45,515 nt of DNA from a virus: IMG/VR virus record IMGVR_UViG_3300045988_006734. One strand, 5' to 3'. Within the stretch, counting starts at the first letter, position 1; each line of letters opens with the position of its first letter. Both the position numbers and the translations under genes were made by a program. Shown here one piece after another: positions 1-44,908 of the stretch. The notes under the pieces are model-generated. The model saw only the letters and a program-made list of their open reading frames with translations. It did no database searches and was not told the origin of the DNA.

Positions 1-73
1 AATCTCTGATTCCGCTTCCAATTTCGCCAATGTCAACAACAACGGTAATGCGAACTACAACAACGCTTCCAAT
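1..73. repeat. Terminal direct repeat, identical to 45443-45515 (assembly overlap of a circular or circularly permuted genome)
   Basis: aatctctgattccgcttccaatttcgccaatgtcaacaacaacggtaatgcgaactacaacaacgcttccaat is read at both ends of the window. Confidence 0.95.
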
Positions 74-115
74 GCTAACGGTGTCCGCCCCGATTTCGAT
101 TCCGCAGTTAAATAG
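2..115 (+). CDS. avd: 3' end of the avd-like ORF that starts at 44928 and wraps the junction; this part is encoded by the DGR template repeat (..ISDSASNFANVNNNGNANYNNASNANGVRPDFDSAVK*)
   Basis: The frame continues from 44928 through the 73-bp overlap to TAG at 113-115. Confidence 0.6.
   Translation: MSDSASNFANVNNNGNANYNNASNANGVRPDFDSAVK
10..97 (+). repeat. DGR template repeat (TR), 88 bp, 24 adenines, 11 AAY codons; its first 64 bp are also seen at 45452-45515 because of the terminal overlap
   Basis: Aligns base for base with 44782-44869 and 17305-17392. Mismatches fall almost only at TR adenines. It lies immediately upstream of the RT. Confidence 0.9.
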
Positions 116-150: not shown

Positions 151-1362
151 TTGTCCTTCCTTATGGTAAATGCTAAACACGACACCACCTCTTACGAGAG
201 CTGTGGTTATAAGCGTGAAATATTTGATGGTAATGCACTGTATGACGCTTTTGTGAGGGCAAAACAAGGAAGTGACTGGAAACCACAGGTACAGCAATTT
301 GAAATGACCTATCTACTGAGTCTTTCCAAAATGCAAAAGGAGCTTGAAAGTAAAACTTACAAATTCCTTCCCTCACAGGAGTTCGTACTGAACGAAAGAG
401 GTAAAACGAGGTATATCAGCGGTGAGCAGATACCCGATAGGGTTGTAAAACACAGTCTTTGTGATGAAGTCTTGTCTCCCGAAATTCGCAAGTATCTGAT
501 TTACGATAACGGAGCGAGTCTCAAGGGTAAAGGGATTGACTTCACGAGACGTAGGCTACTGGTTCACCTTCGGAAGTATTACGCACAACACAAGTCCAAC
601 GATGGTTATATCCTGTTGATTGACTTCTCGAAATACTACGACAATATCCGGCATGACAAGCTCATGGAGTTGTTTGAGAAGTACATTCACGATGAAACCG
701 CACTGTGGCTTCTGCGTGTGATCGTAGACCGCTCGAAGGTAGATGTTTCGTACATGAGTGACGAGGAGTACGAGAACTGCATGGACGCACTCTTTAACTC
801 CCTTGAGCATTCGCAGATGGATAGGAGTCTTCTTACAGGCGAAAAGTTCATGGCGAAGCACTTGAACATCGGAGACCAAGTGGCACAGGTAGCCGGGATA
901 GCCTACCCGATACCCATTGACAATTATATAAAGATTGTCCGTGGTGTGAAATTCTACGGTAGGTATATGGACGATAGTTATGTGATTCATGAAAGCAAGG
1001 AGTATTTGGAAGAACTTCTGCAAGATATTATCCGCATTGCGGCGAGTATCGGTATCACAGTCAACACCCGAAAGACCCGGATATGCAAACTGTCTGAGTA
1101 TTGGAGATTCTTACAGACCCAATACTCCCTCACCGACACTGGACGAGTCATTCAGAAAATCAATCCGAAGCGTATCACCTGTATGCGCCGGAAAATGAAG
1201 AAGCTCGCCTATATCCTTCCTCCGAAGGAATTTGAGGACTGGTATCAGTCGTGGTTTCAAAACCACTACAAGATCATGAGCAAACAGCAAAGGCTCAATA
1301 TGAACACGTTATTCAATGAATTGAAGGAGGTAAACGCAAATGTACACAATCACACTGGCTGA
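151..1362 (+). CDS. DGR-type reverse transcriptase (alternative ATG start at 163)
   Basis: RT motifs LLIDFSKYYDNI, YGRYMDDSYV (YxDD box) and NIGDQVAQ (similar to the DGR-RT IGxxxSQ motif). Adjacent to the TR. Confidence 0.9.
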   Translation: MSFLMVNAKHDTTSYESCGYKREIFDGNALYDAFVRAKQGSDWKPQVQQFEMTYLLSLSKMQKELESKTYKFLPSQEFVLNERGKTRYISGEQIPDRVVKHSLCDEVLSPEIRKYLIYDNGASLKGKGIDFTRRRLLVHLRKYYAQHKSNDGYILLIDFSKYYDNIRHDKLMELFEKYIHDETALWLLRVIVDRSKVDVSYMSDEEYENCMDALFNSLEHSQMDRSLLTGEKFMAKHLNIGDQVAQVAGIAYPIPIDNYIKIVRGVKFYGRYMDDSYVIHESKEYLEELLQDIIRIAASIGITVNTRKTRICKLSEYWRFLQTQYSLTDTGRVIQKINPKRITCMRRKMKKLAYILPPKEFEDWYQSWFQNHYKIMSKQQRLNMNTLFNELKEVNANVHNHTG

Positions 1363-6135: not shown

Positions 6136-6280
6136 TTCACAGATTAACGACCTCGCACGACCATTGATGGGGATTTTGGAAGCGTTCTACCAAGACCCGA
6201 AGAATGAGGAGGACTTTCAAAAATGGCTACTGAGTGTAGAAGAACAAAAAGCAAAAGAATCAATAGAAACAAGCTCATGA
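6122..6280 (+). CDS. Possible small hypothetical protein (GTG start uncertain)
   Basis: Open frame with no clear SD; overlaps the next gene by 58 nt. Confidence 0.2.
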   Translation: MSLSDSQINDLARPLMGILEAFYQDPKNEEDFQKWLLSVEEQKAKESIETSS

Positions 6281-9675: not shown

Positions 9676-11351
9676 TCCGAAACTTTGACGTAGCGAGTTA
9701 CTATCCTCACCTCATGACGATTTGTGGGTACACCTCTCGAAACATTCCGTCCCCGGAGGTCTTTGAAAACGTACTCGAACAGCGTATGAAAGCCAAAGCC
9801 GCCGGAGACAAGGCTACAGCAAATGCACTCAAGCTCGTTGTGAACACGACCTACGGCGCAATGCTGAACCAGTACAACGACCTCTTTGACCCTCTGATGG
9901 GACGTTCCGTGTGTATCACAGGTCAGCTTTTCCTCTTGGAAATGGCTCAGAACCTTTATCAGAACGTGGAGGATTTGGTAATCGTCCAGCTCAACACCGA
10001 TGGTGTCATGATCGAGTTCTACGAAGACCAGTACGAGGAAGTGCTGGCAATCGTGAACGAGTGGCAGTCCCGAACAGGCTTTGAGCTTGAGGAAGACTCC
10101 GTTGCTCTGATCGCACAGAAAGACGTGAACAACTACGTTGAGGTTCAGCCGAATGGTTCTGTAAAGACCAAAGGCGGTTACTTGGTTCGTGGTATCGCCC
10201 CGGCTGGTGCATTCAACGTGAACAACAATGCTTGCATTGTAGCAACCGCCCTCAAGGAGTATTTCGTCAACGGAACTCCTGTGGAGGAAACCATAAATGG
10301 GTGTAACGATATTTTCCAGTTTCAGATCATTGCGAAAGCTGGTGCGAAGTATCGTGAAGCCTATCACCTTGTCGATGGTGAGCAAGTCCCGGTACAGAAG
10401 GTAAACCGTGTCTATGCCACAAAGGACGAGCGTTACGGAAAGCTGTTCAAGGTCAAGGCGGAGAATGACGCTACTGCCAAGATCGAAATGCTCCCGGAAC
10501 ACTGCATTATCGACAACGATAACCAACTCAGCATTGACGATGTAGATAAGACCTTCTACATCGAAATGGCAAAGAAACGAATCAATGATTTTTTGGGTAT
10601 CAAGCCCGAAAAGAAACCAAGAGGAGGACGAAAAAAGATGGCTACTACAGCTAAAGAAACCAAAACCGCAAACCTCAACGTATATCAGAAGTTGCTCGCC
10701 GCAAGAGCGAAGTTCCTTGAGTCTGATGTACAGAAGACAGGTAAGAATATGCACCTGTCATTCAAATACTTCGAGTTGGACGATATTGTTCCTACTGCAA
10801 CTCGCATTTTCAGTGAGGTCGGTCTGATTCCCATTGTGAACTTCACTTCCGATGTGGCTACCATGACCGTTGTCAACACTGATAACCCCGAAGAAGTCAT
10901 TCCTTTTGTAGCTCCGTTCAATCAGATCGCTCCTATCGTGAGCAATGCTGGTAAACAGGCTACCAACGAAATGCAAGCCCTCGGTTCTTCCATCACATAT
11001 ATGCGCCGTTACCTGTACATGATCGCACTGGATATTTGCGAGAGTGACAGCTTTGACGCAAATGTCGGAAAGCCTGTGACTGCTCCTCAGTCCGCTCCTA
11101 CTCCTCCGGCTACTCCCGAACAGAGACAGGAAGTGAAACAGGAGTTGACTGCTCCCGAAGATAACGCAACCGCTTTGCAGATCAAGGGTCTGAAAAACGT
11201 GTTGAAGAAGCTCAAGGACGCTGACCCTTCTAAGGAAGAAATGATCGCTCAGATTGCGGTTCAGACACAGGGCTTTACCGTTATCAGCAAGTCCGACTGT
11301 GAGACTCTTATCACTCGTATCACCGCTATGCTGGAAGGAGGAAATGAGTAA
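9654..11351 (+). CDS. Family-B DNA polymerase catalytic part, fused in frame to an ERF-family single-strand annealing protein (internal SD + ATG at 10638)
   Basis: Pol motifs A DVASYYP, B KLVVNTTYGA, C NTDGVM. ERF-like KNMHLSFKYFELDDI ... GSSITYMRRYLY in the C-terminal 237 aa. No stop codon separates the two parts. Confidence 0.75.
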   Translation: MRKRKRIIRNFDVASYYPHLMTICGYTSRNIPSPEVFENVLEQRMKAKAAGDKATANALKLVVNTTYGAMLNQYNDLFDPLMGRSVCITGQLFLLEMAQNLYQNVEDLVIVQLNTDGVMIEFYEDQYEEVLAIVNEWQSRTGFELEEDSVALIAQKDVNNYVEVQPNGSVKTKGGYLVRGIAPAGAFNVNNNACIVATALKEYFVNGTPVEETINGCNDIFQFQIIAKAGAKYREAYHLVDGEQVPVQKVNRVYATKDERYGKLFKVKAENDATAKIEMLPEHCIIDNDNQLSIDDVDKTFYIEMAKKRINDFLGIKPEKKPRGGRKKMATTAKETKTANLNVYQKLLAARAKFLESDVQKTGKNMHLSFKYFELDDIVPTATRIFSEVGLIPIVNFTSDVATMTVVNTDNPEEVIPFVAPFNQIAPIVSNAGKQATNEMQALGSSITYMRRYLYMIALDICESDSFDANVGKPVTAPQSAPTPPATPEQRQEVKQELTAPEDNATALQIKGLKNVLKKLKDADPSKEEMIAQIAVQTQGFTVISKSDCETLITRITAMLEGGNE

Positions 11352-12382
11352 TGGCTGACATTAAATGGCTTGAGGGTAATCGCTTGCAGATTGACCCTCC
11401 CAAGCGTACCAAGAAAATCACTGGTACTCGCTTTGCTACTATCCTCGGTCTGAATCCGTGGTCTACCGCATTTGAAATGTGGTGTGCAATCACAAAGACC
11501 TTCGAGCTTCCCTTCGAGGACACGATCTACACGGTTGCTGGTAAGACCATCGAACCTAAACAGGCAGAGTACATGAAGAAGTCCTACGGCATGGACTTGA
11601 TTACTCCTACTGACCGCTACGGAGCTGACTACTTCAACAAGACGTGGGGTGACTTCTTCCCCGATAGTAAGCACCTCGGCGGTATGTGGGACTTCCTCGG
11701 TGTGGACGAGAACGGTGTCGTTGACACGGTGCTTGAAATGAAGACCACCAAGCGTATCGAGGATTGGCAGAATGACGCTCCCGAATACTACGCTCTACAG
11801 GCGGCTCTCTACGCTTATCTGCTCGGTGTGGATAACGTAGTCATGGTAGCTTCCTTCCTTGAGGAGAAAGACTACGCTGACCCTTCCAAGTATGTGCCTA
11901 ACGTCAAGAACACTATCACGGTGGAGTTCAAGGTATCTGAGCGTTACCCCGACTTCGCTGAGAAGGTGGCACAGGTCGAACAGTGGTGGGCAGATTACGT
12001 TGACACTGGTATCTCTCCTGTGTTTGACGAGAAGAAGGACGCTGAGATTTTGAAAGCTCTCCGCACTCACAATCTCGCCCCGGACACCGACATTGACGCT
12101 CTGATCGCAGAAGCCGAAGGTCTCAAGACCGAAGTCGATAAGGCTACTGCCGCAATCGCTGATAAGGAAAAGCGTCTCAAGGAGATCAACGACATTATCA
12201 AGGAACACGCTATGAAGCAGTTCCGTCCCGGCGATAAGAAGGTTGAGGTCAAGGGTGCTACCTACACATGGGCTATCTCTCGTTCCGAAACCACTACCAT
12301 CGACAAGAAAGCACTGGAAGCTGACGGTCTGCTCGACAAGTATCAGAAGAAGACTGAACAGTTCCGTATGACTGTGAAATAA
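11351..12382 (+). CDS. YqaJ-like viral recombinase exonuclease
   Basis: ITGTRFATILGLNPWSTAFEMW and LEMKTT..YYALQAALYAYLLG motifs; directly downstream of ERF. Confidence 0.8.
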   Translation: MADIKWLEGNRLQIDPPKRTKKITGTRFATILGLNPWSTAFEMWCAITKTFELPFEDTIYTVAGKTIEPKQAEYMKKSYGMDLITPTDRYGADYFNKTWGDFFPDSKHLGGMWDFLGVDENGVVDTVLEMKTTKRIEDWQNDAPEYYALQAALYAYLLGVDNVVMVASFLEEKDYADPSKYVPNVKNTITVEFKVSERYPDFAEKVAQVEQWWADYVDTGISPVFDEKKDAEILKALRTHNLAPDTDIDALIAEAEGLKTEVDKATAAIADKEKRLKEINDIIKEHAMKQFRPGDKKVEVKGATYTWAISRSETTTIDKKALEADGLLDKYQKKTEQFRMTVK

Positions 12383-12396
12383 GGGGGAAAATCACA

Positions 12397-12498
12397 ATGT
12401 ATGTAAACCCTTTTGTAGCCGGAGTTATCGCTACCATTATGGTAGAGCTGGTAATCGTAATCGGTATTGCCCTGTACATGGGTAATAAGAAGAATTAA
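12397..12498 (+). CDS. 33-aa hydrophobic mini-protein
   Basis: MYVNPFVAGVIATIMVELVIVIGIALYMGNKKN; SD AAGGGGGA 8 nt upstream; below the ORF-track cutoff. Confidence 0.35.
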   Translation: MYVNPFVAGVIATIMVELVIVIGIALYMGNKKN

Positions 12499-12512
12499 GG
12501 AGGATTTCAGAT

Positions 12513-12746
12513 ATGGCAAAGACAAAAGCAGAGCTGGAACAGGAAATCCAGTGTAAGAACGAAGAAATCAAGGCTCTCAAGTGTGAGGTCGAAAAAGCGA
12601 ACCGTGTTGAGAGTAAGAACGAGTCTGCCGCCGAACTGTACGAAATGTACCAGTCCTATGTAACCGCTGGTTTCACTGAGGAACAGGCTTGGGAGCTGAC
12701 AAAGATTCTCATTAACAATGCTACCACCAAACGTGGTCTTTTCTAA
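12513..12746 (+). CDS. Hypothetical coiled-coil protein
   Basis: SD AAGGAGG; fits the intergenic gap. Confidence 0.6.
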   Translation: MAKTKAELEQEIQCKNEEIKALKCEVEKANRVESKNESAAELYEMYQSYVTAGFTEEQAWELTKILINNATTKRGLF

Positions 12747-12760
12747 GGAGGGTATGAAAA

Positions 12761-13201
12761 ATGAAGTTCAAGAAATTTGTAAAATCTCTCGGCGCAGACG
12801 GTGTTCTGTATGTCCGCAACAACGGTGATCGCTGGTTGTCTTCCGGCTCTATCTTCATGAAAGTACCCGAAGACATTCGTACTGTCACTGCCTGTGACAG
12901 CGCAGATATGCCCTCTATGATTGAGGACATTATCAATTATGACACCTTCTCTCAGCCTTGTGAGCTGGTCGAAGCAATCATGCCTGTGGCTGACGGTGTT
13001 ATCAAAGACTGTGTGCGTATCTTCGCCACTGAGAACGGCATTGACAAGACTGCCATTGCCAACGATGGCTATATCCTTATCGAGCGTGGTGACATGGTGG
13101 AAATGTACGTCACCGACAAGATTTCCGCACTGGTTATCAAGAGACCTGTTGATCTTGTAGACGAAGAAGTAGTCGGAGTAATTCTCCGTACTGAATATTA
13201 A
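12761..13201 (+). CDS. Hypothetical protein
   Basis: SD AAGGAGGG upstream; tight spacing with neighbouring genes. Confidence 0.6.
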   Translation: MKFKKFVKSLGADGVLYVRNNGDRWLSSGSIFMKVPEDIRTVTACDSADMPSMIEDIINYDTFSQPCELVEAIMPVADGVIKDCVRIFATENGIDKTAIANDGYILIERGDMVEMYVTDKISALVIKRPVDLVDEEVVGVILRTEY

Positions 13202-13215
13202 GGAGGAAAACGACA

Positions 13216-13749
13216 ATGGCAAGAATCCCTATGACGAGCGGTTTCGCTCTTATTCCCGAAGGAACTTATGTGTTCCGTATCTATGACGCAAAGTATGACG
13301 AGGAGTTCGGTAAGATCGAGGTCAAGCTGGTGAATGCCGCTGGTATGACCCACACTGAACGCTTCTCCATCAAGGACAAGAACGATGAAATGAACGAGAA
13401 AGCTCTGAATGCGTTCTCCTACTTTGCGAAGACCGCAATGGGCGATTTCTCCCTTGAGGACATTGACCCCGAAGAACTGATCGACCACTTCATTTGTGCA
13501 GAGGTCGTTCATACCAAGCTCCCTTCCAACAAAGACCCTAACAAGATGGTTACTTTCGCCAACCTCGGTGACAAGTCTCCGGCTGAGTATTTCGATACTG
13601 AACCTGTTGCTCGTGCGTTGAGTCTCAGCAGAGAAAACGGCGGTGCTAAGAACACTGCCGCCGCTCCTAAGACTGCCGCCCCTGTTCAGCAGACCGCTCC
13701 GGCGGCACAGCCTAAGAAGGGGCTCGACCTTGACGCACTGTTGGGATAA
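13216..13749 (+). CDS. DUF669-like putative ssDNA-binding protein
   Basis: ALIPEGTYVFRI N-terminus, low-complexity A/P/Q linker and acidic tail GLDLDALLG; lies in the recombination module. Confidence 0.4.
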   Translation: MARIPMTSGFALIPEGTYVFRIYDAKYDEEFGKIEVKLVNAAGMTHTERFSIKDKNDEMNEKALNAFSYFAKTAMGDFSLEDIDPEELIDHFICAEVVHTKLPSNKDPNKMVTFANLGDKSPAEYFDTEPVARALSLSRENGGAKNTAAAPKTAAPVQQTAPAAQPKKGLDLDALLG

Positions 13750-13794
13750 AGGTGTGGGGAGCATAGCTCCCCCTCCTCTAAGGAGGGAACGATT

Positions 13795-14277
13795 ATGGAA
13801 ATCAAAGACAGCGGAAACCGCAGAGAGTTTTCCTCCGGGGCAGTCAGAGACATAAACGAAGGTAAAGGTCGATGTGACCTCCTTCCTCTTGGTGTGATCG
13901 GAGAAATCTGTGACAACACAGTTTTCTCCAACATCAATGAGTATATCCGAACTGGCGATAAAATGCTCCTCGTGGAAGCAATCAAGGAGTTTTCCAATAT
14001 CCGTTACGGAGACTTGAACACCGCAATGCTCGAAGTCTCCAAACATTATGAGGACGGTTGCAATAAGTACGGCGAACGTAATTGGGAGAAGGGTATTCCT
14101 CTCCACTGCTACATCGACAGCGGTGTGCGCCACTATTTCAAATGGCTCAGAGGTGATACCGATGAACCCCACGATAGAGCGTTCCTGTGGAATTTGCTCG
14201 GCGCACTGTGGACGCACAATTACAAGCCGGAGTTCTGCGACCTTCCGTTTAAGAAGGAGGACACGCACAATGACTGA
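13795..14277 (+). CDS. DUF5664-type dATP/dGTP pyrophosphohydrolase-like protein
   Basis: DSGNRREFSSGAVRDINEGKGRCDLLP ... KYGERNWEKGIP ... SGVRHYFKW ... EPHDRAFLWNL pattern. Confidence 0.6.
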   Translation: MEIKDSGNRREFSSGAVRDINEGKGRCDLLPLGVIGEICDNTVFSNINEYIRTGDKMLLVEAIKEFSNIRYGDLNTAMLEVSKHYEDGCNKYGERNWEKGIPLHCYIDSGVRHYFKWLRGDTDEPHDRAFLWNLLGALWTHNYKPEFCDLPFKKEDTHND

Positions 14278-14833
14278 GAAAGACAGACTCGACCTGTTCA
14301 TGAAGACACCACTCGCAGACTTCATTTCCGAGGACTTCAAGACCTATCTGCTCGCAGAAGGATTCTTCCGCTCCCCGGCAAGCACCAAGTATCACGGAGC
14401 TTATGAAGGTGGTCTGTTCGACCATTCCTTTGCAGTGATGAATTTCCTCGTGGAGTTGTCCGCAAAGAACGGTCTGCGCTGGAAACGTGCTGAGAGTCCC
14501 TTCATCGTAGGTATGTTCCATGACCTCTGCAAGATCGACAACTACCGTCACCCGGTAGCGGCGGAAACGCTGGACGGTCAGAAGGTCTATGATGAATCCA
14601 AGTGGGAGTACAACCCCGACACCACCTTCAAAGGTCATGGCGATAAGTCTATTATCCTTCTCTCTCAGTTCATGACTCTGACTGAGGAAGAAATCATGTG
14701 CATTCGCTACCACATGGGTGCTTTCGTTGAGAAGGAAGAATGGAGAGATTACACAGGTGCGGTACATAGATACGCAAATGTCCTGTGGACGCACCAAGCA
14801 GATATGCTCGCTTCTCATGTCGTAGGTATCTGA
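14270..14833 (+). CDS. HD-domain phosphohydrolase
   Basis: KYHGAYEGGLFDHS, GMFHDLCK, KGHGDKS, IRYHMG motifs; SD AAGGAGG 9 nt upstream of ATG 14270. Confidence 0.7.
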   Translation: MTEKDRLDLFMKTPLADFISEDFKTYLLAEGFFRSPASTKYHGAYEGGLFDHSFAVMNFLVELSAKNGLRWKRAESPFIVGMFHDLCKIDNYRHPVAAETLDGQKVYDESKWEYNPDTTFKGHGDKSIILLSQFMTLTEEEIMCIRYHMGAFVEKEEWRDYTGAVHRYANVLWTHQADMLASHVVGI

Positions 14834-14834
14834 C

Positions 14835-15176
14835 ATGAACAGAGCTGAAAGACGGAGAAGACAGAAACAGGGACTTCCCATTGTCAAAGAACCTGTGCTG
14901 AATATCAAGGCGAGCGATATTCAGCAGATCAAAAAGGACGCTACCCACACTGCCGCCGACACAGCTTTTTTCCTCATGCTGGCTATCCCGGTCATGGTGA
15001 TTCATGACAAATATCCGCAGATCATGAGGAGAGTCGTGGACGGTAAATCGAGGGAGGAACGCTTCGCTGACCTCTGTCTCGACCTGTACGACAGTTTCAA
15101 CAAAGGGTATGTGACCCTTGATGATTTGGCTCAGTGTCTTTGGGAAGAAGCTGGTATCAAACTCGAAAAGAAATAA
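14835..15176 (+). CDS. Hypothetical protein
   Basis: ORF starts 2 nt after the previous stop. Confidence 0.55.
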   Translation: MNRAERRRRQKQGLPIVKEPVLNIKASDIQQIKKDATHTAADTAFFLMLAIPVMVIHDKYPQIMRRVVDGKSREERFADLCLDLYDSFNKGYVTLDDLAQCLWEEAGIKLEKK

Positions 15177-15189
15177 GGAGGTACAATCC

Positions 15190-15420
15190 ATGAACTATAA
15201 GCTCAAGAACGTGAACGGTAAGGTCACTTTTCTGCTCCGCACTGGCAAGGATTTGGTGAAAAATCAGATGGCTATTGCTTCGGCACAGCACATTATCGAC
15301 CACGGCAAGATCAAGAAGTCCGATGTGAAGGGCTACCCTATCAACGTGGACGATAAGTGGTATTTCGAGGGTGAGGTCTATAAGAAGACCACTCCTCAGA
15401 AGACGGAGGTAGAAGCCTAA
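15190..15420 (+). CDS. Hypothetical protein
   Basis: SD AAGGAGG upstream of ATG 15190. Confidence 0.55.
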   Translation: MNYKLKNVNGKVTFLLRTGKDLVKNQMAIASAQHIIDHGKIKKSDVKGYPINVDDKWYFEGEVYKKTTPQKTEVEA

Positions 15421-15713
15421 TGAGAACTTTCTATTCCGAATATGTACAGCACTGCATGAGATTTTATGCGAGACACCCTCGCCCTAAGTTCCGCAGTGAC
15501 GCAGACAAGCAGAACTGGAACGCTTGTGACAGTGCTATGAAGGGTTTCACCGATAAGGAACAGGACATTCTCATGACTGTCTACCGTGAAGGTGACACCA
15601 TTCCCGACAACGTGTATAAGGTGTCTGTTGATCGCAACATCAAACAGGACACCATTTGGAAGCTCATTAACGAGCTGGAACGCAAGGTTGCAAAGAGGAG
15701 GAACTTGATTTGA
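15420..15713 (+). CDS. Putative sigma-70 region-4-like / late transcription regulator
   Basis: 97 aa; LTDKEQDILMTVY-type segment and a basic C-terminal helix. Assignment is weak. Confidence 0.3.
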   Translation: MRTFYSEYVQHCMRFYARHPRPKFRSDADKQNWNACDSAMKGFTDKEQDILMTVYREGDTIPDNVYKVSVDRNIKQDTIWKLINELERKVAKRRNLI

Positions 15714-16498
15714 CACACTACGAGAACATACCCGGCGAGCTGAAAGAACTGAATCAATGGGTCTGTACTCGTAGTGACAGTAAAGTTCCGATGAAAGCAT
15801 TCGAGAATGAAGCCGCTTCCTCCACCAACCCTCAGACATGGGCTACCTTCGACATGGCGAATGACGCTGTGTCGAAGGGGTTCTATGACTACTGCGGCTT
15901 TGTCTTTGCTGACAACGGTTTTGTCGGCATTGACATTGACACCGGGTATGACGAGGAAGGTTTCATGACACCGCTTGCCGCAGACATTATCGGCAAGTGT
16001 GCGAGCTACACGGAGAAATCCAAAAGCGGCAGAGGTTTTCACATTCTCCTCAGAGGTACGCTTCCCTTCAAGGGCAAGAACAACCTCGCCGGAGTTGAGA
16101 TATACAAGTCCGCCCGGTACTTCATCATGACAGGCGATACGCTCCTCTATCGTAATATCGAGGAGAACCAAGAAGCGATTGATTATGTGGTGGAAAAATA
16201 CTTCCCGGAGACACGGCAAGAGAAAGAGACCTCCGAGTACGGTGGTCGAATCTACTCCCCGATATGGGAACTGCCGGAGAACAATCGTATCAAGCTCCGC
16301 CCTGTCTACCCTCGAATCCCGGACGGAAGCCGTAATATCTGTCTGACCTCTCTCGCTGGTATGCTTCACAATCAAGGGTACAGCAAACAGCAGATATACG
16401 ATGAACTTATTTACTGTAACACGGTTGCCTGTGAACCTCCGCTCGACAGGAACGAGCTGAGAACGATCTGCAACAGTGTTACCCGGTACAAACGATGA
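15710..16498 (+). CDS. Bifunctional primase-polymerase (prim-pol) with PriCT-like C-terminus; TTG start
   Basis: GFVGIDIDTGYDEEG, KSGRGFHILL, YFIMTGD motifs; C-terminal PLDRNELRTICNSVTRY. Confidence 0.7.
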   Translation: MTHYENIPGELKELNQWVCTRSDSKVPMKAFENEAASSTNPQTWATFDMANDAVSKGFYDYCGFVFADNGFVGIDIDTGYDEEGFMTPLAADIIGKCASYTEKSKSGRGFHILLRGTLPFKGKNNLAGVEIYKSARYFIMTGDTLLYRNIEENQEAIDYVVEKYFPETRQEKETSEYGGRIYSPIWELPENNRIKLRPVYPRIPDGSRNICLTSLAGMLHNQGYSKQQIYDELIYCNTVACEPPLDRNELRTICNSVTRYKR

Positions 16499-16716
16499 TT
16501 GAACTCACACCACTACAGAATCTAAGCAATGCAATTATCTTGCAAGCGGTCAAGGACTACCGTACCGCTCTCGGTGGTAGCGGCATAGGCAAGAGACCGC
16601 CGGGAAGCGTCATTGTCGAGGTCGAGCGGTTCTTCCGCTCTGAGTGGTTCGACATACTGACAAATGTTGACGGTGAAGTTCTGATCGAGAAAATCCGCAA
16701 GGAATTTGCAAGATAA
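16495..16716 (+). CDS. Hypothetical protein
   Basis: ATGA overlap with the prim-pol stop. Confidence 0.55.
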   Translation: MIELTPLQNLSNAIILQAVKDYRTALGGSGIGKRPPGSVIVEVERFFRSEWFDILTNVDGEVLIEKIRKEFAR

Positions 16717-16755
16717 AAACTAACACAAAAAAGATAAAAAGTTGCAGAAAAAGTA

Positions 16756-16789
16756 TTGACAACTAATCCGATTTGTGTTATATTATAAT
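16756..16789 (+). promoter_or_regulatory. Strong promoter: TTGACA N17 TGtTATATT (extended -10) with an overlapping TATAAT
   Basis: TTGACA 16756-16761, TG 16776-16777, TATATT 16779-16784, TATAAT 16784-16789; 50 nt upstream of the VR2 target gene. Confidence 0.7.
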
Positions 16790-16840
16790 CACAACAGGAC
16801 AAGAAACAATCTTGTTCAGATTATTAAGGAGGACAGACCT

Positions 16841-17410
16841 ATGATGGTTAAGAGAAGTGAAATGGTGGAAACCACCAACTACAACGTAGAGGACATTATC
16901 TCCTTCGAGCTGGCTGACGGTGAGAAGGTAGAAGCAATGGCTATGAAACAGGAAGCAGACGGTATGATCTTCATGCTGGTGGACTGCTTGAAGGACGAGG
17001 AGTGCATGAACGAGGAAGACTCCAACCGTGGCGGCTGGGACGCAAGCGATTTGCGTGTGAAGCTGAATGGTGAAATTCTCGAACGCTTCCCGGCTGAAAT
17101 CCGTGAGCAGATGGTCGCATTCGCCAACGGCGATATGCTGAGACTGCCTACCGAGAAGGAAATCTTCGGTGTCAATGAGTACGGCGAGACTGAGGACGAA
17201 TCCGTTGAGCAGTTCGCTCCTATGAAGCTCCGCAGAAACCGTATCGCATTTCAAGGTCACAACGGTAATTGGGAATGGTACTGGCTGGCAAACAAGCATA
17301 AGCGTTCCGCTTCCATTTTCGCCGGTGTCGCCGACACCGGTATTGCGGCCTGCGGCAACGCTTCCCTTGCTCGCGGTGTCCGCCCCGCTTTCAAAATCAA
17401 GAATCTGTAA
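16841..17410 (+). CDS. DGR target protein 2: 189-aa DUF6273-like (C-type-lectin/FGE-fold) protein with VR2 at its C-terminus; no signal peptide or TM helix
   Basis: WDASDLRVKLNGEILERFP..LRLPTEKEIFG..WYWLANK..GVRPAFKI; SD AAGGAGG 7 nt upstream of ATG 16841. Confidence 0.85.
   Translation: MMVKRSEMVETTNYNVEDIISFELADGEKVEAMAMKQEADGMIFMLVDCLKDEECMNEEDSNRGGWDASDLRVKLNGEILERFPAEIREQMVAFANGDMLRLPTEKEIFGVNEYGETEDESVEQFAPMKLRRNRIAFQGHNGNWEWYWLANKHKRSASIFAGVADTGIAACGNASLARGVRPAFKIKNL
17305..17392 (+). repeat. DGR variable repeat VR2
   Basis: 88/88 positions align with the TR; 18 differences, all at TR adenines. Confidence 0.9.
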
Positions 17411-17412
17411 TC

Positions 17413-17433
17413 TGCGCCCCCTTGTGGGGCGCA
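17413..17433 (+). promoter_or_regulatory. GC hairpin downstream of VR2 (TGCGCCCC cttgt GGGGCGCA)
   Basis: 8-bp stem and 5-nt loop. The 25-nt block 17409-17433 is identical to 44884-44908, downstream of VR1. Confidence 0.85.
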
Positions 17434-17461
17434 CTCAACCCACACGAAGGAGGATATAATC

Positions 17462-17983
17462 GTGGCTTACTATATGAATAACAACAGAGACATTGAGTGC
17501 TACAGAGGTGACATTTTCTATATCGCCAACAGCGGTCATGTGGTCGGCTCTGAGCAGAGATCGGGAAGACCCGGTATCATCGTCTCGAATGATTTGGCGA
17601 ACAAGCACTCACCCAACGTGTCAGTCGTATATCTGACTTCACAGGAGAAGAAACCTCTGCCGACTCACGTTGATGTGATCTGCAAAGTCCCTTCTACTGC
17701 TCTGTGCGAGAACATTCAGACCGTATCGAAGGAACGTCTCGGTGACTTCGTGAAGTCCTGTACTACCTCCGAAATGGAAAGAGTCGATAAGGCTATCTGT
17801 CATGCCCTCGGTCTCACCGTTCCGGCGGAAGAACCTACTATCACAGAGGAAGATTTGAAAGCTCTCAAGGAAGCACCTGTTCAGCTCATGCCTGTCGAAC
17901 CTACGGCGGCTGAGATTGAGCGTAACCTGTACAAGAACCTGTACGAGCAGTTGCTTGACCGACTGACAGGTAAGTCCGCATGA
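17462..17983 (+). CDS. MazF/PemK-family endoribonuclease toxin with a ~55-aa C-terminal extension (GTG start)
   Basis: RGDIFYI..VVGSEQRSGRPGIIVSND..NKHSPNVSVVYLTS..LPTHVDV..ALCENIQTVSKERL closely parallels the Bacillus EndoA/MazF pattern. Confidence 0.85.
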   Translation: MAYYMNNNRDIECYRGDIFYIANSGHVVGSEQRSGRPGIIVSNDLANKHSPNVSVVYLTSQEKKPLPTHVDVICKVPSTALCENIQTVSKERLGDFVKSCTTSEMERVDKAICHALGLTVPAEEPTITEEDLKALKEAPVQLMPVEPTAAEIERNLYKNLYEQLLDRLTGKSA

Positions 17984-18153
17984 GAGATTCAGTAAAATGT
18001 AGTTCGTGTCGGAAGCGGTGTCTCTGCCGCTCCTGTCCGAACAATCAGACGTGCAAGATCGCCCTCCGGCGATATTGTAAGGCAGTCTGTTATTGCAGTA
18101 TCAATAGAAAACTCAAGGAGAACGAGAATGAACACAGACGTAATGTTCAGTAG
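17980..18153 (+). CDS. 57-aa basic, cysteine-rich (10 Cys) mini-protein, translationally coupled (ATGA) to the MazF-like gene
   Basis: MRDSVKCSSCRKRCLCRSCPNNQTCKIALRRYCKAVCYCSINRKLKENENEHRRNVQ read by hand; below the ORF-track cutoff. Confidence 0.4.
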   Translation: MRDSVKCSSCRKRCLCRSCPNNQTCKIALRRYCKAVCYCSINRKLKENENEHRRNVQ

Positions 18154-18598
18154 CAAAACGGACGATTGGGCTACTCCACAGGACTTCTTCGATGAACTGA
18201 ACCGGGAGTTCGGTTTCACCCTTGACCCTTGTGCAGATCATGTCAATCACAAGTGCGCTACTTATTATACAAAAGAACAAGACGGTCTCGTTCATGATTG
18301 GGGGGGGGAACGAGTATTTTGTAACCCTCCCTATGGGAAAGAGATTGGCAAGTGGGTTCAGAAATCTCTTGAGGAGAGTCGCAAGCCCAATACCCTTGTC
18401 GTAATGCTCATTCCGGCGAGAACCGATACAAGATACTTCCACGACTTCATTTACGGAAAAGCGGAAATCAGATTCATTCGAGGACGATTGAAGTTCGGCA
18501 ACTCGAAAACCGCCGCTCCCTTCCCCTCTATGGTCGTAATATTCAAAAACAAGGAGGAAAAATCCAATGAAGGTAACACTCATACAGGCAACCCCTAA
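18128..18598 (+). CDS. Phage Dam-type N6-adenine DNA methyltransferase (contains a G9 tract at 18300-18308)
   Basis: DDWATPQDFFDELNREFGFTLDPCA and NPPYG motifs. Confidence 0.85.
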   Translation: MNTDVMFSSKTDDWATPQDFFDELNREFGFTLDPCADHVNHKCATYYTKEQDGLVHDWGGERVFCNPPYGKEIGKWVQKSLEESRKPNTLVVMLIPARTDTRYFHDFIYGKAEIRFIRGRLKFGNSKTAAPFPSMVVIFKNKEEKSNEGNTHTGNP

Positions 18599-19181
18599 CC
18601 CCATTGAGACTATCGCTCAGATCGCAAGTATCTGTTACGACAGTGACCCCAAGAATCCTCTCGGACTGGTGAAGCACCTGTACCGCAACGGACACCACAG
18701 TGTCTTCGAGCATATCTACTTCACGTTCAAGATCGAGGGTATCTCTCGTGCTTGCTCTCACCAGCTTGTGAGACATAGACACTGTAGCTTCACTCAGCGC
18801 AGTCAGCGTTATTGCTCCGAGGACGGTTTCGGTGTTGTTGAACCCGGTACGATTTGCAAGGTCGATGAAAAGGGCGGCTTTGGTAATCTGATCGAGGAAA
18901 TCAGCAGACATTATGAGGAGCTACAGGCAATCGGTATTCCCAACGAGGACGCACGATACGTTCTGCCGAATGCGTGTGAAACCTCTCTCTACCTCTCCTG
19001 TAATCTGAGAGAACTCATTCACATGAGCAACGAGCGTTTGTGCCGTAAGGCTCAGTGGGAAATCCGAGAGCTGGTACAGCAGATGGTCTACTGCGTGAAC
19101 GCTGACCTGTGGTTCATGCTCGTACCTAAGTGCAAGAGCGGCAGAATCATTTGTAATTCCCCTTGCGGTAAGGAGGATTAA
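18567..19181 (+). CDS. thyX: FAD-dependent thymidylate synthase ThyX
   Basis: HHSVFEH and the ThyX signature RHRHCSFTQRSQRY. Confidence 0.9.
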   Translation: MKVTLIQATPNPIETIAQIASICYDSDPKNPLGLVKHLYRNGHHSVFEHIYFTFKIEGISRACSHQLVRHRHCSFTQRSQRYCSEDGFGVVEPGTICKVDEKGGFGNLIEEISRHYEELQAIGIPNEDARYVLPNACETSLYLSCNLRELIHMSNERLCRKAQWEIRELVQQMVYCVNADLWFMLVPKCKSGRIICNSPCGKED

Positions 19182-19184
19182 GTC

Positions 19185-19508
19185 GTGAAGGTCAACATTC
19201 TCGGTGTTCCCTACACCATTCAATATAAGTCCCCGGCGGAGGACAAATTCTTGCGAGAGTGTGACGGTTACTGTGACAAAAGCTCTCATAAGATCGTAGT
19301 CAATACCGAGAATGGAGACCTCGAAGATTTCCCTCGGTATCAGAAACAGTGTTTGCGGCATGAGATTATCCATGCGTTTATGTTCGAGTCCGGCTTGGGC
19401 GCAAATTGGGAACATAAACCCATCGGACATGAGGAGACAACTATCGACTGGATAGCCGCTCAGTTCCCGAAGCTCCTCGAAGTATTTGAGAAAGTAGGTG
19501 CTTTGTGA
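19185..19508 (+). CDS. HExxH-motif metallopeptidase-like protein (GTG start)
   Basis: LRHEIIHAFMFESG; SD AAGGAGG. Confidence 0.45.
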   Translation: MKVNILGVPYTIQYKSPAEDKFLRECDGYCDKSSHKIVVNTENGDLEDFPRYQKQCLRHEIIHAFMFESGLGANWEHKPIGHEETTIDWIAAQFPKLLEVFEKVGAL

Positions 19509-21356: not shown

Positions 21357-21551
21357 ATGGCTCGTAATCGTTACCCCGGCTACTGCTATTGTTGCGGTGC
21401 ATACGTTCCAGCCGGGTTCGGACACTTCGAGCGCAGATGGGGTCAGCCGGGTAACAAATGGCAGATCAAATGCGTGAAGTGTGCGTCCGGCAGAACGGTA
21501 AAAGAAACGGACAAAGAAGTCCAGCGAGTAAGGAGGAAAAACAATGAGTGA
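21357..21551 (+). CDS. Hypothetical Cys-rich (zinc-ribbon-like) protein
   Basis: CYCCGAYV ... CVKCASG. Confidence 0.45.
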   Translation: MARNRYPGYCYCCGAYVPAGFGHFERRWGQPGNKWQIKCVKCASGRTVKETDKEVQRVRRKNNE

Positions 21552-22737
21552 TCTTAAAATCTTCACTGAAAATATCGAACCCGAAGCTCTGAATCAGATT
21601 TACACTCTCGTGAAGCAACCAGCGTTCGCAGACTGCAAAGTGCGTATCATGCCGGACGTTCATGCTGGTGCTGGCTGTGTGATCGGATTCACCGCAGACC
21701 TCGGAGACAAGGTTATCCCGAACATCGTGGGTGTGGATATTGGCTGTGGTATGCTGACCGTGGAGCTTGGCAATATCGAAATCGACTTCGCCGCTCTCGA
21801 CTCTGCTATCCGCAAGCGCATTCCGAGTGGACGCAACGTGCATGAGGGACGCTGTGTCTGCTTCGATGAACTCCAACAGCTTCGTTGCTTCCGGGAACTC
21901 AAGGACACCAAACGACTTGAGCGCAGTATCGGTACTCTCGGCGGCGGTAATCATTTCATCGAAATCGACACCGACTCCGAAGGTACGAAATATCTGATTA
22001 TCCACACTGGTAGCCGCAACCTCGGTAAACAGGTGGCGGAACATTATCAGCACCTTGCTATCGAGATCATGCAAGGTAAGGACGAACTCTACGCTATGCA
22101 AGAAAAACTGATTGCCGACTATAAAGCACAGGGACGCAAGGCGGAGATTCAGAAAGCCATTGCAGAGCTTCACCGCAAGTTCCACCCTAACCCTCTCGGC
22201 ATTCCGAAGGAGCTTTGCTACCTCACCGGGAAATACCGTGAAGACTACCTTCATGACATGGAGATCTGTCAGCGTTTCGCAGTCCTCAACCGAAATGCTA
22301 TCGCTTCCGCCCTCATTGATGAAATGGGCTGGCACTCTCTTGGTGCATTCGAGACGATTCACAACTACATTGAGTTTGGCTCGAACATGGTACGCAAGGG
22401 TGCTATCTCTGCAAAAGCCGGAGAAAAGCTCCTCATTCCTATTAACATGAGAGACGGTTGCATTATCGGTGTCGGCAAGGGCAACGAGGACTGGAACTGC
22501 TCTGCTCCTCATGGTGCTGGACGTATCATGAGCAGAAGCAAGGCGAAGGAGCTGGTCTCTCTTGAGGAGTTCGAGGACTCTATGAAGGGTATCTTCACTA
22601 CCTCCGTCAATCAGTCTACGATTGATGAAAGCCCGATGGTTTATAAGCCGATGGCTGAGATCGTGGAGAATATCGCAGATACCGTTGACATTCTGAAAAT
22701 CATCAAGCCTGTGTACAACTACAAGGCGAGTGAGTAA
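21544..22737 (+). CDS. rtcB: RtcB-family RNA 3'-phosphate ligase
   Basis: MPDVHAGAGCVIG, VGVDIGCGM, GTLGGGNHFIE, HTGSRNLG, SAPHGAGR motifs. Confidence 0.9.
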   Translation: MSDLKIFTENIEPEALNQIYTLVKQPAFADCKVRIMPDVHAGAGCVIGFTADLGDKVIPNIVGVDIGCGMLTVELGNIEIDFAALDSAIRKRIPSGRNVHEGRCVCFDELQQLRCFRELKDTKRLERSIGTLGGGNHFIEIDTDSEGTKYLIIHTGSRNLGKQVAEHYQHLAIEIMQGKDELYAMQEKLIADYKAQGRKAEIQKAIAELHRKFHPNPLGIPKELCYLTGKYREDYLHDMEICQRFAVLNRNAIASALIDEMGWHSLGAFETIHNYIEFGSNMVRKGAISAKAGEKLLIPINMRDGCIIGVGKGNEDWNCSAPHGAGRIMSRSKAKELVSLEEFEDSMKGIFTTSVNQSTIDESPMVYKPMAEIVENIADTVDILKIIKPVYNYKASE

Positions 22738-22974: not shown

Positions 22975-23082
22975 AAGTAGTAAAAGTAGTTGTTTTTTAG
23001 TTTTTGCGTATAAGTTCTCTTATAAGGGGTCTATATAGTAAAAGTTACCGTAAAAATTGATTTTCAACTACTTTGACTACCG
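22975..23082. repeat. Palindromic element A: 17-bp site AAGTAGTAAAAGTAGTT (22975-22991), 74-bp spacer, inverted imperfect copy (23066-23082)
   Basis: Same architecture and length as element B at 26792-26899. It aligns better to the reverse complement of B, including a 22/22 match of 22973-22994 with 26880-26901. Confidence 0.8.
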
Positions 23083-24090: not shown

Positions 24091-24192
24091 AATCCGAAAA
24101 AGATAATTTTTTATCTGAAACCTATTGACAAACAATCCGAAAAAGATTATAATGTAATCAAGATAAGACAAGAACCAATCCGAAACGGATAA
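24091..24192. promoter_or_regulatory. Three phased ATCCGAAA(A/C)(A/G)GAT operator-like sites at 24092, 24135 and 24178 (43-bp spacing) bracketing a promoter
   Basis: Read directly; the middle site occupies the -35/-10 spacer. Confidence 0.55.
24125..24153 (+). promoter_or_regulatory. Consensus promoter TTGACA N17 TATAAT for the 24213-25443 cassette
   Basis: TTGACA 24125-24130, TATAAT 24148-24153. Confidence 0.75.
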
Positions 24193-24212: not shown

Positions 24213-25175
24213 ATGAAAAAATATTTTGCTGTATCGTTCAAGTATTCCGAAAGCGTGTATTGCTCCAACATTGCACACGCTGAAACCGCCGAAGCTGTAG
24301 AAGCTCATTATTCTAAATATGAGTGGGTCAGCGTCAGAGAGTGCGAAGATCACGAAGTCGAAACCGCTCGCCGCAAGGGTATGCCGATTGTAGAAATCGA
24401 AACCCCGGAAGCGATCACCGAAGAAGCCGAAACCATCACAGAGGAGGAAACCGAAATGAAAGAATTTGCAATGATTGAAAAGAGAATCACCGAAGAAGCC
24501 GAGCGAAACACCGCCGACACAGTTTTCTATATTGAAAATGGATATTTCCCGACATGGGCGGAAGAACACCGCACAGACCCCGACAGGGGCTTGAAAGCCA
24601 ACAGCACCGAAACCCGATGGAATCAGTACAAAGCCGGAACAATCAGCCGTGAAAAGGCTGTCGAGCTTGCCACAAAGCGAGCAATGAAGCAGATCGAGAA
24701 AAAGACCGCCGCAAAGCTGGCACAGCTTGACCGGGTAGCCAATGCGCCCGACCTCACCTTCATTTCTGTTTCCGTGGATTGGGTGCGCTCCTCCACTTGG
24801 GGCTACAATCCCCATGTTGAGATCAGAACCAACACCGGGACATATTACGGAACGGCGAGCGGTTGCGGCTATGACAAAGAATCCGCCGCCATTGCGGAAG
24901 CGTTCAACAAGTGCAACAGCATTTTGAAAGCCCTTTATCAGCTCAAAGAAAACGGCTTGAGAGCTGGCAAGACGGACGCAAGCAAAACAGCGTGTACAGG
25001 TGTAGACAATCGCAATATTTGCGGCTATGGTTCGGGTTATTCCGTATTACCGTATTTTGAAGGTGGTGTCGGTGCTTCTTGCTTTTGGTCTATTCTGAAA
25101 GATTGCGGATATAAGACCAGCGGACACCACGGCAAACACAGCGATTTTTACAGCGTAGAAAAGGAGGTCGCATAA
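24213..25175 (+). CDS. Hypothetical 320-aa protein (acidic linker; C-terminal SGCGYDKESAA / GYGSGYSVLPYFEGGVG motifs); function unknown
   Basis: SD AAAGGAGG; own promoter. Confidence 0.7.
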   Translation: MKKYFAVSFKYSESVYCSNIAHAETAEAVEAHYSKYEWVSVRECEDHEVETARRKGMPIVEIETPEAITEEAETITEEETEMKEFAMIEKRITEEAERNTADTVFYIENGYFPTWAEEHRTDPDRGLKANSTETRWNQYKAGTISREKAVELATKRAMKQIEKKTAAKLAQLDRVANAPDLTFISVSVDWVRSSTWGYNPHVEIRTNTGTYYGTASGCGYDKESAAIAEAFNKCNSILKALYQLKENGLRAGKTDASKTACTGVDNRNICGYGSGYSVLPYFEGGVGASCFWSILKDCGYKTSGHHGKHSDFYSVEKEVA

Positions 25176-26810: not shown

Positions 26811-26899
26811 AAATCAGTTTTTGCGTAAACTTTCACCTTATGGGTGTCCTATAGGAAGAATTATACGAAAAATCAGAAGAACAACTACTTTTACTACTT
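26792..26899. repeat. Palindromic element B: perfect 17-bp inverted repeats AAGTAGTAAAAGTAGTT (26792-26808 / 26883-26899) flanking a 74-bp spacer; candidate invertible switch
   Basis: Read directly. The spacer carries TAGTTG N16 TATAAT on the minus strand, pointing away from the downstream ORF. Confidence 0.85.
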
Positions 26900-43993: not shown

Positions 43994-44884
43994 ATGTCTA
44001 CTCTACCCATTGAAAATGCAAAGAAGTTTACGGACTTGTCCGTAATCACCGAAGCTCCCGACAATGCGGTACTGCTCATTCACGATGGCAACGGAGTCAA
44101 GCAGATTTCCGCCGCCAATCTGAAAAAGGACGTGAAGGGTCTTATCGACACCGCACAGGCAATGATTAACGCAATCGCTACTACTGGTGCTGGCGCACAC
44201 AACGCTATCTACCGTGGTAAGTCTCTCGGTTCTGCCGTAACCGAAGCTCAGTGGGCGGCAATCAAGGCTGGCACGTTCGATGATATGTATATCGGTGACT
44301 ACTGGACTATCGGTGGTGTCGTTTACCGCATTGCGGCATTCGATTACTACTACAAGACTGGTGACACTTCCTGTGAGACTCACCACATCACTCTTGTGCC
44401 GGACGGTAATATGTACACTCACGTCATGAACGATACGAACATCACCACTGGTGCGTATGTCGGTTCTAAGATGTACACCGAAGGTCTGACACAGGCAAAG
44501 ACTACGATCAACAGTGCGTTTGGCGAAGCGCACGTTCTGAACCATCGTCAGTATTTGAAGAATGCTACGACTGATGGTTACGAGTCCGGCGGTAGCTGGT
44601 ATGACTCCACTGTGGAACTCATGACCGAGCAGAATGTGTACGGCGGTAAGATTTTCGGTAACAGTTTGAACGGCACTGCGCTTGCGGCGAACTATACCGT
44701 AGATAAGAGTCAGTACCCTCTGTTCGCTTTCCGCCCCGACATGATTTCCAATAGAGCGTGGTTTTGGCTGAGAGACGTAGTTTCCGCTTCCCGTTTCGCC
44801 GATGTCGACGGCGACGGTAATGCGCACTGCTACCACGCTTACCTTGCTGGCGGTGTCCGCCCCGCTTTCTCCATTAAATCTTAA
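43994..44884 (+). CDS. DGR target protein 1: tail fibre / receptor-binding protein with a C-terminal CLec-fold VR1
   Basis: Last tail gene; C-terminus WFWLRDVVSASRFADVDGDGNAHCYHAYLAGGVRPAFSIKS. Confidence 0.85.
   Translation: MSTLPIENAKKFTDLSVITEAPDNAVLLIHDGNGVKQISAANLKKDVKGLIDTAQAMINAIATTGAGAHNAIYRGKSLGSAVTEAQWAAIKAGTFDDMYIGDYWTIGGVVYRIAAFDYYYKTGDTSCETHHITLVPDGNMYTHVMNDTNITTGAYVGSKMYTEGLTQAKTTINSAFGEAHVLNHRQYLKNATTDGYESGGSWYDSTVELMTEQNVYGGKIFGNSLNGTALAANYTVDKSQYPLFAFRPDMISNRAWFWLRDVVSASRFADVDGDGNAHCYHAYLAGGVRPAFSIKS
44782..44869 (+). repeat. DGR variable repeat VR1
   Basis: 88 positions align with the TR: 16 differences at TR adenines plus one non-adenine difference (TR C69 vs A44841). Confidence 0.9.
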
Positions 44885-44887: not shown

Positions 44888-44908
44888 TGCGCCCCCTTGT
44901 GGGGCGCA
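44888..44908 (+). promoter_or_regulatory. GC hairpin downstream of VR1 (TGCGCCCC cttgt GGGGCGCA)
   Basis: Identical to 17413-17433. Confidence 0.85.

Follow-up and report, generated by a model that had tools for sequence, protein, structure and literature searches.

The window, the whole 45,515-nt stretch of DNA that was analysed, was a circularly closed contig in which positions 1-73 were identical to positions 45443-45515, so that the unit is 45,442 bp long. The virus is a temperate siphovirus. It carried an amidase/SPOR endolysin gene (2492-3439), a serine integrase gene on the minus strand (3719-5179) and a rightward early block that encoded, in order, SLT, a DEAD helicase, Erf, YqaJ, a dATP/dGTP diphosphohydrolase domain protein and a PriCT_1 primase (15710-16498). 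The gene under study, the VR2 gene, was located on the plus strand at 16841..17410 (ATG at 16841, stop codon at 17408-17410), with a ribosome-binding site, AAGGAGG, 8 nt before the ATG; directly 5' of it were a 73-aa ORF and the PriCT_1 gene. On its 3' side were genes for a PemK/MazF-like protein, Dam, ThyX, a D5 helicase and RtcB, in that order, followed by the packaging, head and tail genes, with the VR1 gene last. The VR2 gene was part of the replication module; TerL lay 10 kb downstream of it, and the tail-fibre-like VR1 gene was 27 kb away. A preliminary description of the locus had placed it between the prim-pol and D5 helicase genes, which was loosely right, except that the PemK/MazF-like, Dam and ThyX genes intervene before D5. 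A megablast search with positions 15700-19200 against a phage collection found no near relative.

The neighbour 51 nt downstream of the VR2 gene was an orphan PemK/MazF-like gene that encoded 173 aa (17462..17983, plus strand; Pfam PemK_toxin, E=4.8e-21). The association of these two genes is one of context only.

The DGR cassette lay at the circular junction. Its reverse transcriptase gene (163..1362, plus strand) matched Pfam RVT_1 (E=1e-12), with YMDD at residue 272, and the product was 27% identical (E=5e-34) to the reverse transcriptase annotated beside the 'DGR target' gene of phage Taranis (MG711467). The 3' end of the template repeat (TR) was about 65 nt before the start of this gene. 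An Avd-like accessory gene of 209 aa ran on the plus strand from 44928 to 45515 and over the junction to 115. Its match to PHROG 3206 ('Avd protein of DGR') was weak (E=6.5e-5), and neither a Pfam match nor BLAST similarity to the Toutatis Avd was found; the position of the ORF was right for Avd, and the TR sat in its 3' end. The VR1 gene (43994..44884, plus strand), at the end of the tail module, encoded the canonical target, a 296-aa tail-fibre-like protein whose N-terminal part gave weak matches to virion and tail-fibre families.

The VR2 gene product was a leaderless protein of 189 aa with a pI of 4.8. It matched Pfam DUF6273 (PF19789) over profile positions 87-171 of 172, with a score of 37 bits against a cut-off of 23.5 bits (E=3.9e-9), and its homologues were already annotated as PF19789; both the length and the DUF6273-like assignment agreed with the preliminary description. 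PHROG 21980, of unassigned function, spanned residues 1-185 as a single domain. Resemblance to the VR1 protein was confined to the C-terminal 90 residues. The roughly 100-aa N-terminal part of the VR1 protein was missing, and no N-terminal virion-attachment domain was found, as judged by the PHROG coverage and the comparison with the VR1 protein. Hydropathy analysis of the VR2 protein and 237 homologues detected no hydrophobic N-terminal or membrane-like segment. These results bore out the earlier statements that the protein has no signal peptide, TM helix or tail-attachment domain. Bacterial DUF6273 domains are mostly extracellular. NCBIfam, which contains no DGR-specific model, gave no match to the VR2 protein, and PADLOC gave none to the VR2 protein, PemK or eight neighbours.

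An AlphaFold2 model of the VR2 protein that was built from a diverse alignment of 43 sequences had a pLDDT of 76.8 and a pTM of 0.79, with a poorly defined VR loop (residues 153-176, below 50); a shallow alignment of 31 sequences gave a pLDDT of 61. When the former model, with its poor VR loop, was compared to the PDB using Foldseek, there was nothing at E<=0.001 and no match to a C-type lectin, Mtd, TvpA or FGE. The best match was the IgA peptidase 9qa6 (E=0.2), the N-terminal domain of which is DUF6273, and a profile search of PDB sequences returned chance matches only. Among viral models (BFVD), the other DUF6273 proteins that Foldseek identified were of two sorts, small ones (about 190 aa) and tail-collar-fibre proteins (730-870 aa). 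A resemblance between DUF6273 and C-type lectins has been claimed (PMC10743442; bioRxiv 10.1101/2024.10.15.618418). The C-type lectin fold that had been expected for this protein was not recovered from the AlphaFold2 model by Foldseek against the PDB.

Variable repeats and their diversification

Repeat comparison identified a family of three members: the TR (10..97, plus strand, or equally 45452 through the wrap to 97), VR1 (44782-44869), which lies inside the tail-fibre-like gene, and VR2 (17305..17392, plus strand), which encodes residues 155-184 of the VR2 protein. The spacing was 27,477 nt between VR1 and VR2 and 17,295 nt between the TR and VR2, in accordance with the 27.5 kb and about 17 kb given previously. 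Mismatches between VR2 and the TR were present at 18 of 88 positions, and all 18 coincided with TR adenines, of which there are 24 (hypergeometric P=5.6e-14), exactly the count that the preliminary description had claimed. VR1 differed from the TR by 16 adenine mismatches and one C>A change, and the two VRs of this genome differed from each other at 16 positions. Translated in the frame of both VRs, the TR reads SASNFANVNNNGNANYNNASNANGVRPDF, in which 11 codons are AAY.

The GC-rich 3' end of VR2, GGTGTCCGCCCCGCTTTC (17375..17392, plus strand), was identical in VR1 and one base different from the TR; this single difference in the IMH region was a C in both VRs and an A in the TR. Such a one-base difference fits an IMH versus IMH* pair, as expected, and by analogy with the BPP-1 model GGTGTCCGCCCCGCTTTC may represent the start point of homing. 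Just 3' of the VR2-gene stop codon was a hairpin, TGCGCCCC-CTTGT-GGGGCGCA (17413..17433, plus strand), and an identical hairpin followed VR1 (44888-44908); the distance from VR to hairpin was about 20 nt at both sites. The VR2 hairpin, with an 8-bp GC stem, folded as single-stranded DNA at -10.9 kcal/mol (z=-4.5) and the VR1 hairpin at about -11 kcal/mol (z=-3.1). These structures are presumed to be the DGR target-recognition hairpin or cruciform. The adenine-only mismatches, together with an IMH and a hairpin that are common to VR1 and VR2, supported the proposal that VR2 is a second, remote target of the same DGR.

A scan of the family, anchored on the GVRP codons, located a GC-rich hairpin 29-40 nt past these codons in 69 of 92 loci; some of the hairpins fall inside C-terminal extensions. 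The stems in these 69 loci had many different sequences, with complementarity maintained. One subgroup of the family had no hairpin, and its VR-equivalent region was likewise invariant.

The Logan contig L008, which came from another sample, had 20 mismatches to positions 9852-17530 (7,679 nt), 19 of which were in VR2, and these 19 were all at adenine-templated positions. In the nine relatives that were compared (L008 and eight others), every VR2 was different, with 14-22 adenine-site differences. Differences at other VR2 positions numbered 0-2 in eight of the nine (1-2 in the seven of these besides L008) and seven in the most divergent, L013 (74% identity). Flank identity for the eight relatives besides L008 was 74-98%; one of them, L089, derived from a mouse-gut Eubacteriales MAG. 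In the pair L010 and L014 the flanks were nearly the same and VR2 differed in its 3' third only, a pattern that partial cDNA replacement from the IMH end would give.

The same signature was evident at the protein level. The VR2 protein was aligned with 29 full-length members of two 90%-identity clusters (76 and 342 sequences), and all 30 of these near-identical proteins had unique VRs. Eleven columns were variable, with 7-12 residue types in each, and these were exactly the AAY codons; elsewhere there were three residue types at most. These comparisons indicate that VR2 is actively diversified, as had been suggested; an invariant VR2, which the preliminary description had named as contrary evidence, was not seen in the L008 contrast, the nine relatives or the 30 proteins. 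For the homologous VR2 of phage Shimadzu, diversification has been shown experimentally by means of sequencing reads (bioRxiv 10.1101/575076).

Gene context and transcription across the family

The location of the target gene was consistent across lineages. The relative L001 had the same gene order as the window, and in L002 the target gene was flanked by a DEAD helicase gene and a C5 methylase gene. Acutalibacter phage Fontainebleau carried it between the genes for DNA polymerase I and a helicase; orf43 of Roseburia phage Shimadzu was between a methyltransferase gene and Erf, and Toutatis gp24 was in the early region. The genes directly flanking the target in 79 IMG/VR loci, 150 in all, matched 26 Pfam families, which included SF2 helicase (17), 3D (12), MT-A70 (9), C5 methylase (8), PemK (4), Hjc/RecU (4), MazG and D5. 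Among the 25 of these 26 families that were listed there was no capsid, tail, portal or terminase family, and in this genome too the gene was outside the tail and late structural genes. In the family loci, C5 methylases formed the largest neighbour cluster (48 members) when three genes to each side of the target were considered. The replication-region location that had been described for this genome, here within a replication and DNA-modification module, held across the family. PemK was adjacent in 4/79 of the IMG/VR loci and was absent from L002, Fontainebleau, Shimadzu and Toutatis, and the early modules of phages often contain an orphan MazF-like gene with no DUF6273 neighbour.

Upstream of the VR2 gene was a sigma-70-type promoter-like site, TTGACA-17-TATATT with the TG of an extended -10 (16756..16784, plus strand), which had a consensus score of 11/12 and ranked in the top three sigma-70-type matches over 15.6 kb. 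It was inside a 63-nt stretch (16749-16811) of which a second copy was present at 24118-24180, and it was retained in the close relatives L001, L008-L014 and L089. In the family as a whole, the target gene began less than 80 nt past the upstream gene in 67 of 93 loci, the median gap being 22 nt. With such short gaps, a separate promoter is not characteristic of the family, and co-transcription of the target with the replication genes is implied. The extended -10 promoter that had been attributed to the VR2 gene is therefore present and kept in the close clade, but it cannot be generalised. Since the VR2 hairpin is not followed by a T-run, transcription probably continues through it into the PemK gene.

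Possible roles of the VR2 protein

The explanation that is favoured, with modest confidence, is that one DGR acts in trans to diversify a soluble binding protein of a single domain, with early or middle expression, and that this protein acts on a variable ligand inside the infected or lysogenic cell. Of this, the diversification and its cis elements are shown, and the place of action and the kind of ligand are inferred. In this scheme a single cassette at the circular junction, consisting of the Avd-like gene, the TR and the reverse transcriptase gene, would serve two genes in trans. The cDNA made on the TR transcript, in which adenines are miscopied, would replace DNA that has a matching GC-rich IMH followed by a GC hairpin. 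Two sites would be replaceable in this way: VR1, beside the cassette, and, at a distance of 17.3 kb, VR2 in the 3' end of the 189-aa gene. In the VR2 protein, the randomised residues would be the 11 that are AAY-templated and one that is TAC-templated.

The VR2 protein would be made with the early or middle genes, and in this clade probably also from its own consensus promoter. It would then presumably remain soluble, as an adjustable binder inside the infected or lysogenic cell, and would not be part of the virion. The most plausible class of ligand would be a variable host or competing-phage factor, such as a defence component, a class that is favoured because anti-restriction methylases are persistent neighbours. 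The more specific proposal, that the protein is an early intracellular 'antibody', encoded among anti-restriction methylases and evolved by means of the DGR alongside the adsorption apparatus, with a randomised surface through which the phage or the lysogen tracks defence proteins or competing phages, must be regarded as doubtful. An intracellular role for the VR2 protein is suggested through guilt by association, from its gene context. The preliminary description had called the protein cytoplasmic and not receptor-binding; the placement of its gene among replication genes is consistent with that view, as is the protein having neither a leader nor an attachment domain, and the argument is one of context.

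The most serious alternative, although an unlikely one, is that the VR2 protein is a virion-associated or accessory receptor-binding lectin of the Mtd type, which would attach non-covalently to the tail or head and broaden adsorption, its gene having come to lie outside the late module by chance. The domain is common to the tail-fibre-like VR1 protein and the long tail-collar-fibre proteins in BFVD, tropism switching is the canonical purpose of phage DGRs, and a receptor-binding reading has been proposed for Toutatisvirus (bioRxiv 10.1101/2024.10.15.618418). Against this, in every lineage examined the gene was found in replication and methylase operons, often only 4-22 nt past the upstream gene, and the VR2 protein has none of the N-terminal attachment domain that such a function would use. 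Furthermore, VR1 and VR2 differ at 16 positions, and a common ligand is therefore not expected.

It is improbable that the VR2 protein is instead a soluble lectin, freed at lysis or by lysogens, that binds glycans of mucus, debris or neighbouring bacteria. A leaderless protein could act outside the cell after lysis, since it would escape when the amidase endolysin lyses the host. DUF6273 occurs in secreted bacterial proteins, such as in the N-terminal domain of IgA peptidase, and a prophage-encoded DGR target of phage Mushu is reported to occur in the Faecalibacterium secretome (bioRxiv 10.64898/2026.05.08.723808). The gene, however, is in an early/replication operon and not with the lysis or late genes.

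The proximity of the PemK/MazF-like gene raised the idea of a two-gene abortive-infection or exclusion module in which the VR2 protein would be the antitoxin, or an adjustable sensor, of the toxin. The order of the genes is antitoxin-like, the VR2 gene being directly upstream of PemK with a shared consensus promoter and no intrinsic terminator between them, and no other antitoxin candidate was evident beside PemK. This role was largely rejected and is very improbable: the adjacency is specific to this clade (4/79 IMG/VR loci), MazF-like orphans occur frequently in the early modules of phages, and neither an antitoxin domain nor a PADLOC match was found for the VR2 protein. Finally, that VR2 is a decayed or chance repeat which the DGR does not use has a virtually negligible probability, since distance from the cassette is all that favours it, whereas the mismatches are confined to adenines, the IMH and hairpin are intact, and a dead repeat was refuted by L008, by the nine relatives, in each of which VR2 was different on a near-identical background, and by the 30 unique VRs.

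Remote targets are missed by large DGR surveys, metagenome contigs being short (Roux et al. 2021, PMC8144416), and the class is consequently under-counted. When representative proteins (clustered at 50% identity) were searched with a profile, 7,400 representatives matched at E<=0.001 and 2,616 at E<=1e-10; the best 150 were mostly stand-alone proteins of about 190 aa, in keeping with a large family. Given that the target gene was placed with replication and DNA-modification genes in every lineage examined, the published receptor-binding default deserves testing. A remote DUF6273 target will not surprise the specialist, but what this very large and under-surveyed class does can be tested directly. 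If the VR2 protein does work intracellularly, phage DGRs would for the first time have a target whose role is not adsorption, and the protein would be a natural scaffold for intracellular binders. Should the 'antibody' proposal be true, phage DGR function would widen from tropism switching to counter-defence or host takeover. If, on the other hand, the protein is a virion or secreted lectin, it would represent an ordinary extra tropism determinant.

Comparison with published systems

Small remote targets of this kind have already been published for Shimadzu, Toutatisvirus, Lelie and CP11, and the VR2 gene is less novel than the preliminary description implied. In Shimadzu, orf43 carries the second VR of the phage DGR, and its diversification, both in culture and in mice, was shown by sequencing (Cornuault et al., bioRxiv 10.1101/575076 / ISME J 2020). 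Its product has 30.6% identity to the VR2 protein over 91% of the query and is likewise a small DUF6273 protein with a C-terminal VR. As here, one DGR has a tail gene as its first target and this distant gene as its second; orf43 is located among DNA methyltransferase, Erf and replication genes. The differences are that Shimadzu is a myovirus with a Lachnospiraceae host, that orf43 encodes 209 aa and overlaps the upstream gene, and so has no own promoter, and that it has no PemK neighbour.

The second DUF6273 target of Toutatisvirus is 17,480 nt from the TR and is a core gene, present in 98.8% of 173 phages (Egorov & Atkinson, bioRxiv 10.1101/2024.10.15.618418); a receptor-binding role was suggested for it by these authors. 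Like the VR2 protein, Toutatis gp24 is a small DUF6273 protein (215 aa) encoded about 17.5 kb from the TR, in the early region, 3' of DNA methyltransferase genes and a 3D-domain gene. Unlike the system described here, Toutatis is a myovirus in which the first target is the Hoc-like 'tentaclin', and gp24 has no BLASTP-detectable similarity to the VR2 protein.

The Faecalibacterium phages Lelie and CP11 encode 'small DGR target proteins' (Microbiol Spectr 2024, PMC11792537). Each has one large and one small DUF6273 target with C-terminal VRs, as in the present genome, and in CP11 hypervariation and adenine loss were observed at both VRs across cognate genomes (PMC11792537). These phages belong to other lineages, and cultures of Lelie showed no read-level variation. 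Which genomic module holds the small target is not discussed in that report (PMC11792537). Neither the consistent placement with replication and DNA-modification genes nor the missing leader and attachment domain is remarked on in the published accounts of Shimadzu, Toutatisvirus and Lelie/CP11; both features argue against the default guess of receptor binding.

The BPP-1 system resembles the present one in its adenine-specific transfer from TR to VR, its GC-rich IMH followed by a hairpin, its AAY-rich TR and its C-terminal VR. In BPP-1, however, there is one target, which adjoins the cassette and encodes the tail-fibre protein Mtd with its solved C-type lectin fold, whereas the VR2 target is remote, single-domain and outside the structural module, and its model had no fold match to Mtd.

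Cytoplasmic DGR targets have been described in multicellular bacteria, where proteins that combine a STAND NTPase with a C-type lectin domain are termed 'putative antigen sensors' (PNAS 2024, PMC10907252). These are large multidomain cellular proteins with effector/NTPase modules, in contrast to the VR2 protein, which is a stand-alone phage domain of 189 aa. They nevertheless provide a precedent for DGR targets that are not surface-exposed and that are thought to bind invader molecules intracellularly.

Variation of VR2 and its hairpin among related loci

The loop of the hairpin that follows the stop codon of the VR2 gene, which encodes the small DUF6273 target protein, was found in both orientations across relatives: CTTGT in the window, and ACAAG in the related locus L009 (10581-10585, equivalent to 17421-17425 in the window) and several others. 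The stems were the same whichever loop was present, as if the palindromic element had been flipped among these relatives.

Two contigs of one IMG/VR dataset (3300045988), L010 and L014, were each aligned against the window. Their VR2 sequences (VR2 region at locus coordinates ~10465-10552) were unlike only in the 3' third, and their flanks diverged from the window to a nearly equal extent; as judged from these alignments, the pattern is consistent with partial VR replacement beginning at the GC-rich IMH end. A further subgroup of the small-target family (L053-L066, IMG/VR contigs of 70-170 kb) had no downstream hairpin and a nearly invariant VR-equivalent region. These copies are probably uncoupled from any active DGR and therefore provide an internal control.

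Repeated sequences in the window

The 3' end of the Avd-like DGR accessory ORF (44928-45515, continuing to 115) contains the template repeat, TR, in the frame common to the VRs; the predicted Avd protein therefore has an Asn-rich tail encoded by TR. A 63-nt promoter-plus-leader sequence was present in two copies (73% identical), one upstream of the VR2 gene (16749-16811) and the other (24118-24180) upstream of an unknown 320-aa ORF (24213-25175). Each copy has a -35 and a -10 element of consensus type, with a common motif downstream, and this duplication suggests common regulation of the two genes.

Between RtcB and TerL, direct repeats of 43 nt (79% identical; 22975-23017 and 26792-26834) flank a segment of 3.8 kb. 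Within it are genes for a TerS-like protein, an HTH regulator and a small serine invertase/resolvase (26229-26810), together with unknown genes; the segment is possibly a cassette that was inserted or that can be excised. The tape-measure gene (1,594 aa) contains five or more tandem copies of a 150-nt repeat that are 65-83% identical (38739-39739).

Genes around the small target

Three nucleotide-metabolism or DNA-modification genes are grouped around the small target, namely a MazZ-like gene with a dATP/dGTP diphosphohydrolase N-terminal domain (13795-14277), Dam (18128-18598) and ThyX (18567-19181). MazG genes adjoin the small target in other phages, and one database protein, P0079, was called as a MazG-DUF6273 fusion.

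Early regions containing the small target also repeatedly hold murein hydrolase genes, far from the lysis module: an SLT gene in the window (6223-6894) and 3D-domain genes elsewhere, including locus L068 and other loci, gp16 of phage Toutatis and orf40 of phage Shimadzu. A murein hydrolase gene was the immediate neighbour of the small target in 12 of 79 loci.

Located 51 nt downstream of the VR2 gene is an orphan PemK/MazF-like endoribonuclease gene (17462-17983, plus strand; 173 aa), which matched Pfam PemK_toxin and whose product has a C-terminal extension of ~58 aa; no recognisable antitoxin for this gene was found. A gene for an RtcB RNA ligase (21544-22737) is also present in this phage. 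The two may form a cut-and-repair set by analogy with E. coli, since MazF-cleaved RNA can be re-ligated by RtcB in that organism.
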